A stretch of DNA of 64,000 nt, from contig NW_021834793.1 in the NCBI RefSeq assembly GCF_006345805.1, positions 6,348-70,347 on the forward strand. Direction: 5' to 3'. The position numbers and the translations under genes are program-made. Numbering within the stretch: the first letter of the stretch is position 1; every line of letters starts with the position of its first letter. Below the pieces are notes generated by a model. That model was not told the origin of the DNA. It saw nothing but the letters and a program-made list of their open reading frames with translations, and searched no databases. Shown here piece by piece: positions 3,577 to 25,382 of this stretch. The DNA is from Octopus sinensis. Lineage: Eukaryota.

Positions 3577-6581
<3,005 letters not shown>

Positions 6582-6880: not shown

Positions 6881-6950
<70 letters not shown>

Positions 6951-6953
<3 letters not shown>

Positions 6954-8455
6954 TTTGGCATAGTATGAATGATGGATTTGGGTTTTATTATTCACAATTT
7001 CTAGCCAGAGTACGGTGACTAGTACTGGTATTCTATGGTTGGGGTGTTTAGTGGGGTAGTCTATTGTGACCTTAATACTCTGGTGAATGGGGTTAGCTAT
7101 TTGCTGGATGCTCTCTATAGTATTAGTTTCTATTACTATATCAACATTACTCTCTTGTGGGGGTGCCTTTACCACTATGTTGATATCATCAACATAGCGG
7201 GAGTACATGTTTACGAGTATGGAGTTCTGTGCTAGGCGTTCTTTAAGCCTTCTGTCCCACCATACCATGAAAAGATTGGCCACATCACCAGCGATACTAA
7301 CGCCGATGGCTGCCCCCTCGTCCTGGGCATATATTTTATTATTAAACTTAAACGTGTGGCCTTTTAGGGTAACTCTTATACTAGCTCCTAGTGCATGTGC
7401 GATCATTTTCTTTATCTGATGGACATTTGCGGGGCTCCGTATGGCTCTGGTCCATCTGCGCCATCTTTCTATATGTGTCTTCCTAGCCATAGAAGTAATT
7501 GTGGGTGGTCTACCTCCTAAACATCTACTGGGGCAGAAACTACTAAGATTATATTTATCTAAGTATTCATTATTACATGTCAGTCTAAGTAGGAGGCCCA
7601 GTTCTTCTGTGTTGACATTACAGAATTCCACCTGGCTCTCATTGATCATCTCCATGCACTTCTCCACCGCAAAATCTACGTCGATCGATGGGTATAGGGA
7701 TACCACATCCATGCTACCCACCATACATCCTGTCAGGTCACAAGTGCTGTTACAGTCATCGATCCTGCTGAGGAGATCTTCTGTGCTGTCACAAACATTA
7801 GGTGACATCCGGATTATAGGGCGTATGATCATTGAGAGGAAGTAGAAGATTCTGTAATTGCTAGCGATATTCGCTCCACAGACTGGTCTTGTTGGTGGTC
7901 CTGCTATAGGGTCAGTAATTTCTTTATGGTCCTTGCAAAGTCCATTCAGTGCCGGGATATCATTGTTCCAGGCTTGGAAATTATTTGCTGTACGTTTCTG
8001 GGGTCCCAGAACAATTGTCCACATCATCATGTGGGCGTTGAGGACCTTTTCTCTCTCCTCATGTGCCTGTACAGTTGTTAATTTTGTATTGGCGATATGA
8101 GGTTGCATTGCCTGGATGTAGTTCGGTAAGCTGTCTATTGACATCCTGCCGGACTTATCTGTGGGAAGGCATACCACCTCTCCGTTCCTCGTGCGCCACA
8201 TGCAGGTTTAATCCCGAGTTGTTGGGCCTCTGTCTTATTCTGTCTCTGTCTCTTAGTGTATAATCCTAAAATCTGTCTAAGTTTGGTCCTAGCTATAGTG
8301 AACTGTGCTTCCATGTGGTCATTAGTATTTCTTGGGATGTAGACTCTTTTGTTGAAGGGTAATGTTGTTGGATAAATCCGGCTCATGCAGTAAGTTTTGT
8401 CACATACGTTGAAGAATTGAGTGTCAAAGGGGTGGGTATACATGTCAATGGTCAT
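6951..8455 (-). mobile_element. Penelope-like element reverse transcriptase fragment
   Basis: PTDKSGR, KDHK..TRPVC, DVVSLYPSID, FKFNNKIYAQ..G.AIG, ANLFM, RYVDD; frameshift near 8200; runs into (TA)n at 6951. Confidence 0.88.
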
Positions 8456-8793
8456 TTAAAAAAAAATTTTTTTTTATTTATATATTTTTTTTCGATTCGA
8501 TTTATTATTATTATTACTAGTATTGTTGTTATACATACAAGCATATGTAATGATAATAATAAAGTGGATGTAAACACATGAACAAAATAAGAATAAACAA
8601 AAACAAAATACAAATTACATGAACATATATAAACAGAAGATACAAATATTACGGGCATCCCCCCACATACACACACTAAATAAACATAGACGCACATAGA
8701 GATATAAGCATGCGCAAATGAAGACATACAATAGAAATACAAAATGGCTGACGGTTATCAAGGAGAGACACAAATAAGAAAGAAGAAAACAAA

Positions 8794-8838
8794 GGACCAC
8801 TGATGCGGTCACAGGAGTGTGACGAAAGAACTCTGGCC
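8794..8838 (+). ncRNA. Atypical or degenerate hammerhead-like motif next to the PLE
   Basis: ggacca CTGATGCG gtcaca-ggag-tgtgac GAAA gaac TC tggcc; core deviates after G8. Confidence 0.45.
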
Positions 8839-9000
8839 GAAATAAGATTAAGATTAATGTAAAAAATAAATAACAATGAAGCAAAATAACACCAAATATA
8901 TAGTGCGTGTGTTTTTATTGGCTAAACTGGCAAAATAACCATTCCAAAATATAACAATATATATATATGTATGTATATTATATGTATATATATATATATA

Positions 9001-9031
<31 letters not shown>

Positions 9032-9072
9032 TGTATTATATATATATGTATATATATATGTATATATATATG

Positions 9073-9109
<37 letters not shown>

Positions 9110-9160
9110 GTATATATATATGTATATATATATATATGTATATATATATGTATATATATA

Positions 9161-9192
<32 letters not shown>

Positions 9193-9247
9193 GTATGTAT
9201 ATATATATGATATATATATTATATGTATATATATATATATATGTATA

Positions 9248-9285
<38 letters not shown>

Positions 9286-9332
9286 ATATATGTATATATA
9301 TATATGTATATATATATATGTATATATATATG

Positions 9333-9363
<31 letters not shown>

Positions 9364-9406
9364 GTATATATATATGTATGTATATATATATGTATATATA
9401 TATATG

Positions 9407-9458
<52 letters not shown>

Positions 9459-9463
9459 TATAT

Positions 9464-10112
9464 AATAACTAAGTCTCTCTAAAAGAGAACAGCGGCAGCG
9501 TTCCCGGAAAATAATAGTTATCGCCATACTAATATGGCATTCTTATAAAAATAAGAAAAAAGCTGTCCGCTTATTAGCTCCATGAGGCCATCGCCTTAAG
9601 TTAGCTATTTGATACACAAACTGTATCCATATAACCTTCGAACAAGGGAGGTCAGTCGCTCCACCATATTAGTATGGCGATAACTATTATTTTCCGGGAA
9701 CGCTGCCGCTGTTCTCTTTTAGAGAGACTTAGTTATTTTAATATTTCTATTATTGAAAACAAGTGGATGTATTCCACCGAAACTAGGTAAATAAAACCAT
9801 CGAACAGAGATTGTCGGAAGCGACACCTACTGGCTGACTACGCTGCATTGAAAAGGGGCAATACTCCGAAACGCGTCTGTAGCTGCCGGTCAAGTGGTGT
9901 GGAGCGACTGACCTCCCTTGTTCGAAGGTTATATGGATACGGTTTGTGTATCAAATAGCTAACTTAAGGCGATGGCCTCATGGAGCTAATAAGCGGACAG
10001 CTTTTTTCTTATTTTTATAAGAATACCATATTAGTATGGCGATAACTATTATTTTCCGGGAACGCTGCCGCTGTTCTCTTTTAGAGAGACTTAGTTATTT
10101 TAATATTTCTAT

Positions 10113-10115
<3 letters not shown>
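9464..10115 (+). mobile_element. Non-coding PLE pseudo-LTR/retrozyme-like cassette (inverted + partial tandem)
   Basis: 9464-9664 is the reverse complement of 9899-10099; 90-bp direct repeat 9664-9753 / 10026-10115 (period 362); (TA)n on both sides; contains a hammerhead. Confidence 0.85.
9842..9883 (+). ncRNA. Minimal type I hammerhead ribozyme, U3-A8 core variant
   Basis: gctgca TTGAAAA gggg-caata-ctcc GAAA cgcg TC tgtagc. Confidence 0.8.
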
Positions 10116-10185
<70 letters not shown>

Positions 10186-10361
10186 TACATATATATATGT
10201 ATATATATATACATATATATATGTACATATATATACATATATATATATGTACATATATATACATATATATATATGTACATATATATACATATATATATAT
10301 ATGTACATATATATACATATATACATATGTACATATATATACATATATACATACATATATA

Positions 10362-11840
10362 TCTCTCCTCATCCATCCGTAGTACATGATCATACCAATG
10401 CAAATGTCTCTCTTGCATGCCACATCCTATGCTTCTTATGTCCAACATTTCTCTCGGGGCGCTTGAACTCTGTCACCCCTACTGGGTGAACATTTGGCAG
10501 GCTCTCCCTCCTCCCATTCATTGTCCACATTCAGCAGTCTTTCATATTGGCTTCTCCAAGCCTCTTTCTTTTCTGAATCATTAAAAGCAAGTGCACCATC
10601 ATCCATGCTGACACATTTCTCTCCTGTGACATCACAATTTTCTCTTACACACTGTCTTGCAATCCGAAACACCTCAGTTCTTTGGTCCTCACATCGCTGG
10701 ACATTGGCAAACCTCTTCTTTTCCACTTCGCCCTTGACTATATATACCTGCTGCCCAGCCTCACATTTGACTACCTGGTACAGTTCCCTGCTACCCCACC
10801 CCTTCCAGGCTTTCCAGGCCTGTTTCTTTGCTCTAATGGCATTGTCTACCATACTATTCCACCACCATGTAACTCTAGGTCTGGAAGGGATTTTGCGCCA
10901 TCCGCAGACTTGGTCTGTGGCACTCAGCAAGCTGTCCCCTAGGAATTTCCAGCTACCTTCAATGTCTGATGTCTGCAGCTCCTCCCCCCTCTCCTCAAAT
11001 TTCTTGATGAGGATGTCCCTCAATCTCTGACCATGTGAAGGGTTCTTTACCTACCAAATCCTTTTTTGGATTTGTCTGTATCTTGGTATCCTTCTGGCCT
11101 CAAGCCTAAAGTCACTAATGACTAGCCTGTGCTGGGAGGTACATTCTTCACCCGGAGGGTATTTGCATTTAAGAGCAACCCTGCGTCCCACTGTCTGGTG
11201 AGGATGAAATCAATCTGGCTAGCAGAGTCCCCTGATTGATAGGTTATAAGGTGGCTGTCTGACTTCCTGAAGTTAGTGTTGCAGATTAAAAGGTTACATG
11301 CATCACGGAACTGCAGTAGCCTGGTTCCCTCATCGTTTCGGGTGCCAATACCATGGCCATCGTTTACCCCAGTGAAGATACCCGATTCCCACCCAACATG
11401 CCCATTAAAGTCTCCAGCCACAAATATGAAGTCATTGCCACTCATCTTTGAGATAGCCTGTAGAAGGGTATCATAAAAGTGGTCCTTCTGATCATTTGGT
11501 AGCCCTTGCATGTGGGGTGTAGGTGGAGATAATTGTAGCTGTTGTTCTGCTGGACTAGTCTGAGCTTAAGCACTCTATCGCATACCCTAAGAACCTCTGT
11601 GACCTTATCCACTCATTTCTCCATAAGAAGTATGCCTACACTCCCTACATCATCCATGTTACCTTGCCAGAAGACTTTATACCTTTATACCTTGCCTATG
11701 AGGACCCTAGCTGAAGCTCCTCTCCATCTTACCTTTTGTATGCAGCATACATCGACCCATCTCCTTTCAAGCATCTCTACAATCTCACTAGACCTACCTT
11801 TCAGTGCGCCAACATTGACAGTGCCAACTCTGAAAACTGG
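10362..11840 (-). mobile_element. RTE LINE fragment (endonuclease + linker, RT internally deleted)
   Basis: GDFNGHVG, IDFIL, VTWWWN; linker joined near 10476 directly to C-terminal RHLHWYDHV. Confidence 0.88.
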
Positions 11841-22571: not shown

Positions 22572-23635
22572 ATGAGGTTGTCAAGAATGTTCTTGGAGTT
22601 TTTAACCTTTAAATTCAGATGCACATAATTCGGCTCAAACGAAACTTTATTAATTGAATTAAACTTCATCAGAATCAACACACTCTTGCTAATGCAAAAC
22701 AAGTTTATTTATGCCAGTAGCGTAAAAATTCTGTGTTCAGGTTGCAATGAAATCGTTGAAGGTGTGTTTGGCATCATCTTGGTTTTTGAAGCATTTCTCA
22801 TGCAGGAAGTTGTCGAGATGCTTGAAAAAAGTGGTAGTTGTTCGACAAAAGGTCTGGTGAGTATGACAGATGAGGTAGAATTTCGTAGCTTAAATCGTTC
22901 AACTTCTGCAGGGTCAGTTTCGCGATGTGCAGCCAAGCATTGTCGTAGAGAAGAATCGGTCCTTTTCTATTGACCCATGCTGGCTGTTGTTGTCGGAGTT
23001 TCTTATGCATTTCATCCATTTGCTAACCATACTTCTCCGCCATAATGGTTTCGCCTGGATCCAAAAAGCTGTGACCACCAAACAGACCATGACCTTCTTT
23101 TGGTGCAACTTTGGCTTCAGGAAGTGCCGTGGATCTTTGTTGGCATTCAACCACTGAGCTGAGCATCACCGGTTGTCATAAAGAATCCTTTTTTCATCGC
23201 AAGTCACAATCCGGTCGAGAAATGGGTCATTCTTGTTGCATAAAAGAAGGGAAGACAACACTTCAAAACAGGGTTTTTTTTTTTGGTTGTCATTCAATTC
23301 ATGCAGTACCCATTTCTCAAGTATTTTTGTTTTTCCAATCTCTTTCAAGTGGTTGAAAATTGTTGTATATGTTACGTCTAATTCAGAAGCAAGCTCTCGA
23401 TCAGTTGTGTGTGGATTGGCTTTCACTAAGATTCTTAGTTGATTGTTGTCAACATCTGATGGCCGACCACTACGCTTATCTTCAAGACTTGTGTCACCAT
23501 TACGAAATTTCATTAGTGGTTCCTGGGCCAAACACATCATTGAAATCGCAAGCTGTTTCAGCAGCTTTTCGGCCTAGCTTCAGCTGCAATAAGAAAATTG
23601 TGCAAATTTGCTTTTTGTCCATGTTGTATTCAACA
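22572..23635 (-). mobile_element. Mariner transposase pseudogene
   Basis: RSGRP, WVLHEL (WVPHEL), IVTCDEK, LYDNA, YSPDL motifs over frameshifted ORFs. Confidence 0.9.
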
Positions 23636-25382
23636 TTCACTGTCACATCCTGGCGTCGCTACCTCGGTAAAGCTTATTACGGCTCAGTTTTTCTGGCCTA
23701 ATATGCGCCAGATGATCACCGATTGGGCATGCTCTTGTGTAAAATGCCAGTGTTCTAAAATCCACAGGCATATTCACGTTCCTCTTGGACAGTTTTTTCC
23801 TCCAGAGACTCACTTTTGCCATGTCCACACTGATCTGGTTGGACCATGGCCTGTCAGCCGTGGTTTCTCTTACATATTAACATGCGTCGATCATTTCTCT
23901 CGTTGGCCAGAGGCCATTCCAATAGTGGACATTTCCGCTGTGTCAGTTGCTCGAGCTTTCACTTCAAACTGGATTGCTTGCTTTGGAGTCCCTGCTAAAA
24001 TAACCACTGATTGTGGACGCCAGTTCAAGGCTTCCCTATTTTGTGAATTATCACGAATCCTAGGAGTTCATCCCATTTGTACGACCAGCTACCACCCAGC
24101 CTCCAACGGGATGGATGCTTTCACAGGAAACTGAAGGTTGCCCTACGTGTCACTTCTGATCCACAGTCTTGGACAGAATTCCTGCCTATCATTCTTCTTG
24201 GTTGTCGCACTGCTGTTAAAACAGACTTAGGTTTCTCCTCTGCTGAACTCCTCTATGGTACTATCCTGGCACTCTCTGGTACAATGTTAGTGCCAGACAA
24301 CTCATTGCCTCCTGATCCAACATCGTATGTCACTCAGACTTTGCTCATATTTCTTGAGTCTTCCACCCATGAATCCGTGTGACCAGTCTATTCCCTCTCG
24401 TGTCCCTCCGGATATTGACAAATGGACTCATGTTTTGTTCGGGATGATTCTGTCAGAGGACCTCTCATTTCTCCTTTTAAGGGACCATTTCATGCGGTAT
24501 CGCACACATACAAAACTTTTAGTCTCAACATCCATGGTCAGGCAGAGACCGTGTCGGTTGACAGACTTAAAAGGGCACATTTTGAGGTGTCCACACCCTT
24601 CAATGACATGCCAAAGACGCCCTCCTTTGATATTTTACAATCACCTACACATCCACCTGCACATGCACCTTTGACCATACCATCACCTACATCTTCACCT
24701 TCGTCGCCACTACTAACATGAATAAACCCTATGTCACCAGGACTGGCTGCACTGTGCATTGGCCCAAAAAACTCACTAAAACTATTTATATCTGACAATC
24801 TCTTTTGTGTTTCCTGCTTTCTTGTGTTACTGGACAGTTCCAATACTCTGCCAATGAACATTTTGCCAAATTTTGTGCATGCTAATTTATATTTCTTGCA
24901 GTTATTATTCTATTTGACTTATCACATTTTTGTACCATATCTTGTTGATTGCAATCAGTTACCATCTTTGCTCTTTCTTGTGCCTGCTCCAATTATTTTG
25001 TTTTTGTACTTCCGCACTCAGGGGGAGCCTTTGTAGCGGCACAAGTAGTCAGCAACATATTGGATGAGATCTTGCGACAGCCATTGCCATCTGGAGCGAG
25101 ACCTCACCTGCATCCATTTGCCATGTGTGAGATCACAAGGCTCGCGATGGAGAAAACTATATAAAGGGAAAACCTTCTTCAAATTTCTTTTCTTCGGCGC
25201 CACAACACACCAGCACTGGCTGAACAACACTACTGGCTGTGGTTTTCTGCCTGTCTATCTCCAGAGGCAATGCACCCACACTATCAGAGCTTAAGATGGT
25301 AGCTGAGAGTAGCACACTTCACCTTTCCTGTAAATAAACCAGTTGTAATTAGCAGTTGTAAATGCCGGAAGCCTGAACTACA
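23636..25382 (+). mobile_element. Ty3/Gypsy retrotransposon 3' part: integrase pseudogene, PPT, 3' LTR
   Basis: H..SHPG..C..CQ zinc motif, DLVGP, RWPEAIP, ITTD.GRQF, TTSYHPASNG, GPY/F-like GPF; purine tract at ~25020. Confidence 0.9.
25032..25382 (+). repeat. LTR (351 bp)
   Basis: TGTAG...CTACA termini right after agggggag; internal TATATAA (~25158) and AATAAA (~25333). Confidence 0.75.

Follow-up and report, generated by a model that had tools for sequence, protein, structure and literature searches.

Insertions of a 362-nt octopus hammerhead retrozyme likely record a Penelope-type enzyme copying one small RNA from both DNA strands

How does a sequence that encodes no protein come to lie between (TA)n arrays with an inverted arm, a partial tandem repeat and a ribozyme? 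The question is raised by positions 9464 to 10115 of a 64,000-nt stretch of Octopus sinensis DNA, referred to here in its entirety as the window (NCBI RefSeq assembly GCF_006345805.1, contig NW_021834793.1, positions 6,348 to 70,347, forward strand). A sequence-only reading had proposed a young insertion of a non-LTR retrozyme, placed by a Penelope-type route from a circular or multimeric RNA of ~362 nt. The family data presented here support that proposal, with the circle as its conjectural element. At a probability of roughly 0.78, we favor a model in which the window cassette is a young non-coding 362-nt hammerhead retrozyme copy, likely inserted by a borrowed Penelope-type RT/GIY-YIG enzyme that copied a single, probably circular, RNA by priming from both nicked strands of the target. 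The cassette behaves like a circle mobilized by a Penelope-like element (PLE) but is not a PLE, and the non-LTR retrozyme is a kind of element that is already known. Comparisons with published systems refer to the accessible portions of the papers cited.

The window cassette and its hammerhead

The inverted arm was correctly recognized at the outset: 9464-9664 is the reverse complement of 9899-10099 over 201 nt with 2 mismatches (9622/9941 and 9538/10025). The terminal direct repeat is likewise present, at 91 nt and not the 90 first given; its copies, 9663-9753 and 10025-10115, are 100% identical and spaced by 362 nt, in agreement with the proposed period. The first 2 nt of this repeat are common to the inverted arm and form a microhomology at the junction. 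The cassette is non-coding, as claimed, with a longest ATG-started frame of 38 codons on either strand, and the reported (TA)n flanks extend over about 8960-9463 and 10116-10362. The GC content of the 362-nt unit is 41%. The features are:

8960-9463, no strand: left (TA)n array, the target microsatellite, from sequence and flank identity; it is preceded by the 3' terminus of an unrelated Penelope-like repeat of GIY-YIG type
9464-9664, minus strand: inverted arm, equal to unit positions 9899-10099; its outer end is off the family rule, at neither 10052 nor 10115
9663-9664, no strand: head-to-head junction with 2-nt microhomology, unit position 9899 joined to unit position 10025
9663-9753, plus strand: 5'-truncated partial unit, the last 91 nt of the monomer
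9752-9775, plus strand: weak snRNA-promoter-like (PSE-like) site, 64 nt upstream of 9816, of putative function
9754-10115, plus strand: full 362-nt monomer
9816-9832, plus strand: 17-nt site duplicated by a LINE in other copies and empty in the window copy
9832-9891, plus strand: predicted type I hammerhead, from descriptor match and covariation
10046-10052, plus strand: first fixed end site of the family (CTATTAT), the tail-minus end
10053-10115, plus strand: 63-nt "tail" between the two fixed ends; the right arm of the window copy stops at the tail-plus site, 10115 (CTATTAT)
10116-10362, no strand: right (TA)n array, from sequence

The two arms of the window copy differ at 2 of 201 nt and disagree at both rare sites that both cover; the left arm carries the majority alleles and the right arm four rare substitutions. 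We looked for an empty allele of the insertion site and recovered none, the left flank being itself a repeat. Among the listed contigs of runs X15, X16, X19 and X3, none bridges the junction (contigs drop rare variants). The cassette occupies the TA run directly after the end of a member of another high-copy GIY-YIG PLE family (1,563 candidates), represented by an RT fragment at 6949-8207 (minus strand) and a 3' end at 8454-8960 (plus strand) and without homology to the unit. Elsewhere in the window, 4317-6464, 241-2611, 10436-11050 and 23544-24134 hold a long LINE RT frame of 715 aa, an integrase-like fragment and several fragments resembling RTE elements, all labeled from their translations only.

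A ribozyme had also been placed within the cassette, and a structural descriptor gives a single type I hammerhead match in the 64-kb window, with cleavage predicted after GUC at the same position, 9877/9878; Rfam at gathering score gives 0 matches in the window. Helix I has 6 bp (9842-9847/9878-9883) plus a distal helix, in which a G>A at 9837 of the window copy disrupts one pair; helix II has 4 bp (9855-9867) and helix III is palindromic (9871-9876). The core reads UUGAAAA (9848-9854), with U3-A8 replacing C3-G8, a variant described for PLEs (PMC4209133). The match is not due to chance, since a 36-nt hammerhead stretch has 163 exact copies in the genome and its reversed control 0, and a relaxed pattern has 2,693 matches and its control 49. 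Among 19 sequences of related subfamilies, 91.5% of cells are paired, 6 of 20 pairs are altered on both sides and the palindromic helix III is preserved through a double change; slid controls are 27-44% paired, a comparison biased in favor of the structure because it was drawn from the same 19 sequences. The isolated hammerhead region folds no better than shuffled sequences (z 0.27), and structural support thus comes from covariation. Folded as a circle, the 9754-10115 monomer reaches -106.9 kcal/mol (z -4.0), with 0 of 100 shuffles as stable.

A promoter matrix built from the upstream regions of 11 of 20 U1 loci (8 pseudogene-like loci and 1 duplicate were dropped) and 2 U2 genes ranks the PSE-like site best of 724 sites in the unit, at 6.7 bits against 6.4 for the next best. 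This score is reached by 0 of 1,000 shuffles within a fixed interval and by 112 of 1,000 somewhere. The 64-nt spacing to 9816 equals the spacing in U1, a weak hint in the sequence that 9816 may be the transcription start of the unit; arm inner ends are not enriched at this putative start (0/120). Newt satellite 2, a tandem hammerhead repeat whose snRNA-type promoter is internal, would be a precedent if the weak motif is real (as cited in PMC2220036); the newt promoter was shown experimentally, whereas the octopus promoter is a weak positional match.

Copies of the unit and the pairing of their ends

The proposal presupposed that the unit is repeated. In the 2.7-Gb assembly that is the source of the window, the best 40 of 1,376 candidates hold 113 matches, many at 98-99% identity and many in tandem (up to 99%). 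Related hammerhead motifs number about 2,700, in subfamilies down to about 75-85% identity. Arrays on many contigs show one hammerhead per 362 nt and reach about 7.6 units, and the longest arm, of 2,741 nt, contains no coding DNA. The family thereby has the marks by which retrozymes are recognized: a hammerhead in each unit (with the U3-A8 core), dispersed tandem units in the range of 150-450 bp from dimers to multimers (362 nt), no coding capacity (38 codons) and GC below 50% (41%). Two consecutive hammerheads, the sign of an "active" retrozyme in bioRxiv 10.64898/2026.07.22.740005, are found at many sister loci but not in the window copy. With its single ribozyme this copy is likely unable to make circles itself, a dead end for circle production; it is an ordinary and slightly off-rule member of its family.

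At least half of the unit's sequence words are present in 20 public runs from 9 studies with four organism labels; no RNA holder of the unit is listed among the runs that contain these words. Runs X2 and X14, whose status as RNA is a guess, hold 392-nt contigs (362+30), one of which wraps round the unit; these fit a 362-nt circle, a tandem transcript or DNA equally. A seven-unit array (L297-L303, G000:C1:28.19 Mb) consists of two variants that alternate by unit, as dimeric-circle copying or DNA-level duplication would produce. Weak profile matches at L212:6019-6209 and L202:185-326 point to remoter hammerhead repeats, of which one has the canonical core CUGAUGA.

We extracted 80 distinct complete insertions from 98 loci. 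Of these, 62 are head-to-head; the other 18 have a single arm, and several of them are pieces cut off by another insert. In 54 of the 62 (52 without two second copies from local duplication) one outer end lies at 10115 and the other at about 10052. The remaining eight comprise one scored 10115/10115, which is the window copy and whose left arm in fact stops at 10099-10100, one scored 10052/10052 and six with one end elsewhere. Thirty of the 98 loci had been picked for a 10052 end. A second set of 30 loci, picked for a 10115 end and including two that overlap earlier sets and two near-duplicates, gave a 10052 partner in 19, a 10115 partner in 0, a single arm in 9 and no class in 2; the tail is thus one-sided in 19 of its 21 two-armed loci. 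Both fixed ends, 63 nt apart, read CTATTAT followed by TA, and exact end-plus-TA junctions occur 308 and 1,199 times in the genome.

This anatomy is that of PLE insertions, which carry a truncated copy in inverse orientation, are tailed on one side (PMC8557442, PMC3846280) and are biased toward (TA)n (PMC8557442). In vitro work shows cleavage and extension on both strands of the target, with the tail delimited by two RT start sites, and a dimer is predicted (PMC11167929). The octopus insertions place an inverted 5'-truncated copy beside a partial tandem in 62 of 80 cases, carry the tail on one end only in 54 of 62, with the window copy as an exception, and favor AT-rich or (TA)n targets. Non-LTR retrozymes are expected to show a target site duplication (TSD) longer than 4 bp where one is present. 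A 12-bp TSD is visible at the non-TA site L130; at the window copy and most others the TSD is hidden by (TA)n. The end pattern of the family likely records a Penelope-type enzyme copying one small RNA from both DNA strands. The suggestion that the cassette was copied slightly more than once around its template needs amending: the partial tandem with an inverted end stands, but it is better read as two cDNA arms set head-to-head than as a single pass of 1.25 turns.

A probable single template and a proposed borrowed enzyme

Were the two arms copied from one RNA? The arms of a locus differ by 0.0065 per nt (60 two-armed loci with 14,534 nt in common), the tandem units of a single arm by 0.0072 and shuffled arms by 0.018 (lowest 0.0127 in 1,000). 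Allele sharing between the arms of a locus is as close as that between tandem units and argues for one RNA template, primed twice. From these sequence comparisons we infer a single RNA, either circular or an uncleaved multimer, and probably circular. The cleavage site is crossed by 93 of 114 arms and crossed twice by 29. Inner ends at this site (2/120 against 2.3 expected) are not enriched, and hence cleaved linear monomers are not the template. Junctions overlap by at least 2 nt in 42 of 60 cases (BLAST-based).

Some details of the arms stand apart. Unit positions 9917-9923, at a short palindrome, are a hotspot of inner ends (13/120 against 2.3 expected), and two loci on different contigs, L023 and L137, have an identical junction. 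RNA editing written back into DNA was considered as a source of shared rare alleles and is not supported: 14 of 43 are A>G, but 8 of these come from two loci of a diverged subfamily, and the remainder is 6 A>G against 2 T>C.

We envision the following scenario. An snRNA-type promoter in each unit might, on weak grounds, start transcription near 9816. Hammerheads of neighboring units are predicted to cut at 9877/9878, and the released monomer would be ligated into a circle. An AT-rich target would then be nicked on both strands by the putative Penelope-type enzyme, with reverse transcription starting at 10115 for one strand and at 10052 for the other, as the observed end pattern suggests. Each arm extends back through the unit for a variable length, often past the cleavage site, presumably by rolling-circle copying, and the junction overlaps show the arms to be joined via a few bases of microhomology. 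At the window copy the second arm, which ends at a look-alike motif at 10099, may reflect mis-priming or later trimming.

Several points count against this model. The tail of 63 nt exceeds the 30-40 nt usual in PLEs; no coding PLE with the unit or tail was found in the loci searched; the window copy is off the end rule and its arms are unlike at both shared rare sites; and the promoter match is weak, with no arm stopping at 9816. In addition, 8 of 9 predicted Xenopus retrozymes failed to cleave in vitro (bioRxiv 10.64898/2026.07.22.740005) and transposition of PAc is independent of its hammerhead (PMC11167929).

Arm-to-arm allele sharing could also reflect one dominant source at a time or later conversion between arms, in which case the two arms would stem from two RNAs or two events. 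The window copy, with 2 differences in 201 nt and majority alleles in its left arm, fits that account, as do a few loci with discordant arm alleles such as L040 and L059. We nonetheless judge it unlikely, because the arms agree at position 9865, a nearly 50:50 polymorphism, in most loci where both of them include it and because the strict 10115/10052 pairing requires one coupled event. The unit might instead be the pLTR of an undiscovered autonomous PLE, whose 5'-truncated or solo pLTR insertions arise from uncleaved linear multimers with no circle involved. Hammerheads, including the U3-A8 variant, do occur in PLE pLTRs (PMC4209133), Xenopus retrozymes match pLTRs (bioRxiv 10.64898/2026.07.22.740005), and our sample covers 50 of thousands of GIY-YIG loci. 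Against this stand arms that span up to about 7.6 consecutive units without coding DNA, the finding that a LINE is the only long neighbor shared across 265 loci, and the expectation that arrays would shrink with each round on linear templates; taken together they make a pLTR origin quite improbable.

That LINE, described below, could in principle be the mobilizing partner, with the inversion produced by L1-style twin priming, since it is young (15 copies differ by 0.4% on average) and physically linked to the unit. Classical twin priming yields non-overlapping segments, whereas the retrozyme arms overlap in sequence and stop at two fixed sites in (TA)n; moreover, the LINE lies inside the unit with its own TSD, occurs also as 5'-truncated and LINE-TSD-LINE forms, and has no 3' end in common with the unit. 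We regard this origin as very improbable. Hardly credible is an assembly fold-back artefact or single-copy curiosity: the window does lie on a small contig (G000:C11264) and its exact junction has no independent support, but the junction is asymmetric (9899 to 10025) with two substitutions between arms, 62 insertions of like architecture have different junctions, and at least half of the unit's words occur in each of the 20 public runs, which bear four organism labels.

Borrowing by the retrozyme would require a lender, and the genome has many GIY-YIG matches, 150 of 5,029 candidates having been scored. One family has intact 781-aa frames with RT and C-terminal GIY-YIG domains and a CxxxCxxC linker, is TA-bounded, and is of Neptune/Nematis type by the description in PMC8557442. 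Its two ends lie about 35-40 nt apart, and it carries a degenerate U3-A8 hammerhead whose palindrome is identical to that of a sister retrozyme subfamily. A locus of another coding family (L218) is head-to-head with one tailed end. The idea raised at the start that the unit is the pLTR of a coding PLE was not borne out in 50 PLE loci and 9 more, a small share of the 5,029 candidates: the unit profile matched only separate retrozyme insertions in the 50 loci, and PLE proteins compared with the 265 retrozyme loci revealed no sense fusion and no RT or GIY-YIG ORF belonging to the unit. No PLE examined shares sequence with the unit, and the partner is thus a class and not a named element. In a retrozyme relative at L284:1030-1722 both arms run into the start of an antisense PLE ORF, consistent with a chimeric template or an inverted target duplication. 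A stretch of shared unique DNA beside the unit, once considered a PLE body, is actually the L1/Tx1-type LINE.

The octopus unit resembles the metazoan non-LTR retrozymes (coral, Mytilus with 350-390 bp and axolotl, PMC7229834; vertebrate survey, bioRxiv 10.64898/2026.07.22.740005) in its non-coding tandem units of a few hundred nt, the single type I hammerhead that each unit carries, a GC content under 50%, dispersal from monomer to multimer, a well-folded monomer and coexistence with PLEs. It is unlike them in combining a U3-A8 core with a full-size hammerhead, and RNA circles have been demonstrated for the published retrozymes while that of the octopus unit is predicted from sequence. Two-armed head-to-head insertions with two fixed ends find no mention in the accessible text of PMC7229834 (where "inverted" occurs 0 times) or of the 2026 vertebrate survey. 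EN+ PLEs (Neptune/Nematis, Naiad and Poseidon PAc; PMC8557442, PMC3846280, PMC11167929) share the partial tandem with an inverted 5'-truncated copy, the one-ended tail, the (TA)n bias, two RT start sites and, where visible, the larger TSD. The octopus unit differs from them in lacking an RT or GIY-YIG ORF and in its 63-nt tail, compared with 30-40 nt, and its sequence matches none of the termini of the coding PLE families examined in the genome. The minimal hammerheads of the Schistosoma PLE Cercyon (PMC4209133) show the same U3-A8 core covariation and a short palindromic helix III that favors dimeric folding; unlike these, the octopus hammerhead has helices I (6 bp plus distal) and II (4 bp) of canonical size and lies within a tandem retrozyme.

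The mobilization of animal retrozymes is still a hypothesis, for which the published support, in the portions of PMC7229834 and bioRxiv 10.64898/2026.07.22.740005 at hand, is co-occurrence with PLEs and pLTR similarity. The octopus family offers a countable footprint: unlike-paired fixed ends, allele-sharing arms and passage through the cleavage site. It also bears on the open question of how the tail and inverted structure of PLEs originate, and a 362-nt substrate with intact candidate enzymes in the same genome makes a model of one RNA and two primers directly testable. We found no prior description of the family, the strict end pairing, the same-template arms or the LINE target in the openly accessible literature searched.

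A LINE that inserts into the retrozyme

A 5.3-kb LINE is present in several sister copies. It has APE, RT and zf-RVT domains and a zinc knuckle in ORF1 (PF03372, PF00078, PF13966, PF00098), and we take it from its domain order and familiar motifs to be of L1/Tx1 type. Its exact 3' ends fall at the 9816-9832 site in 34 of 39 cases (28 of 33 plus six more), well within the definition of target specificity as more than 20% of copies at one target; the five exceptions are one at the 5' boundary of a U1 gene (scored at 125 bits by Rfam), three that use ATAC-type sites and one within TA. A 5'-truncated LINE with TSD (L120), an insert of 64 nt (L121), two tandems of LINE-TSD-LINE form and TSD alleles that for the most part follow the host unit show that the LINE targets the unit independently. 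Young LINEs differ by 0.4% (mean, 15 copies) and their host units by 1.9%. LINE and host haplotypes correlate at r 0.15 among young loci (197 of 2,000 permutations) and at r 0.45 over all 23 loci (3 of 2,000); a weak link among the young LINE-bearing loci may exist and counts against the favored model.

Older copies suggest that the LINE switched its target from U1 to the retrozyme. An older full-length LINE (L174:1660-6960; 93%), headed by 17 nt of U1 and encoding an almost identical endonuclease, lies between two U2 genes, and another older copy (L170:6952-7122) lies at the start of a U1 gene. Target-specific LINEs of the Tx1 clade (Tx1L in Tx1D, Tx1-Mar, Keno in U2; PMC4494074) similarly combine APE and RT, use one site in another repeat and pile up in tandem; the octopus LINE differs in its retrozyme target and in having older, near-identical copies located at the starts of U1 genes or at ATACTT sites. 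The literature on target-specific Tx1 LINEs, to the extent of the text of PMC4494074 available, contains no retrozyme as a LINE target.

These observations lead us to a speculative picture, of a cephalopod-type system in three layers, that we consider tentative and on balance doubtful. An snRNA-type promoter would feed a U3-A8 circle; a PLE dimer would copy a single circle onto both target strands, with one subunit working from each of the tail-bounding sites; and a LINE homing to snRNA-type transcription starts, having switched from U1 genes to the circle with its endonuclease almost unchanged, may use the host ribozyme to process its own RNA. If true, the tail and the inverted structure that all EN+ PLEs display would follow from double rolling-circle reverse transcription by a PLE dimer.

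Two loci illustrate the variety of LINE-bearing copies. A head-to-head array of about 29 kb (L063-L066, G000:C3:72.50-72.53 Mb) has five units that each carry a full LINE; four of them belong to one arm and the fifth to its partner. An origin of the array by rolling-circle copying of a composite of unit and LINE was considered and rejected, as the five LINE copies carry different haplotypes, which favors independent insertion. At L061:7138-7211, the 3' region of the LINE contains a near-perfect 74-nt hairpin, about 50 nt longer than in sister copies.
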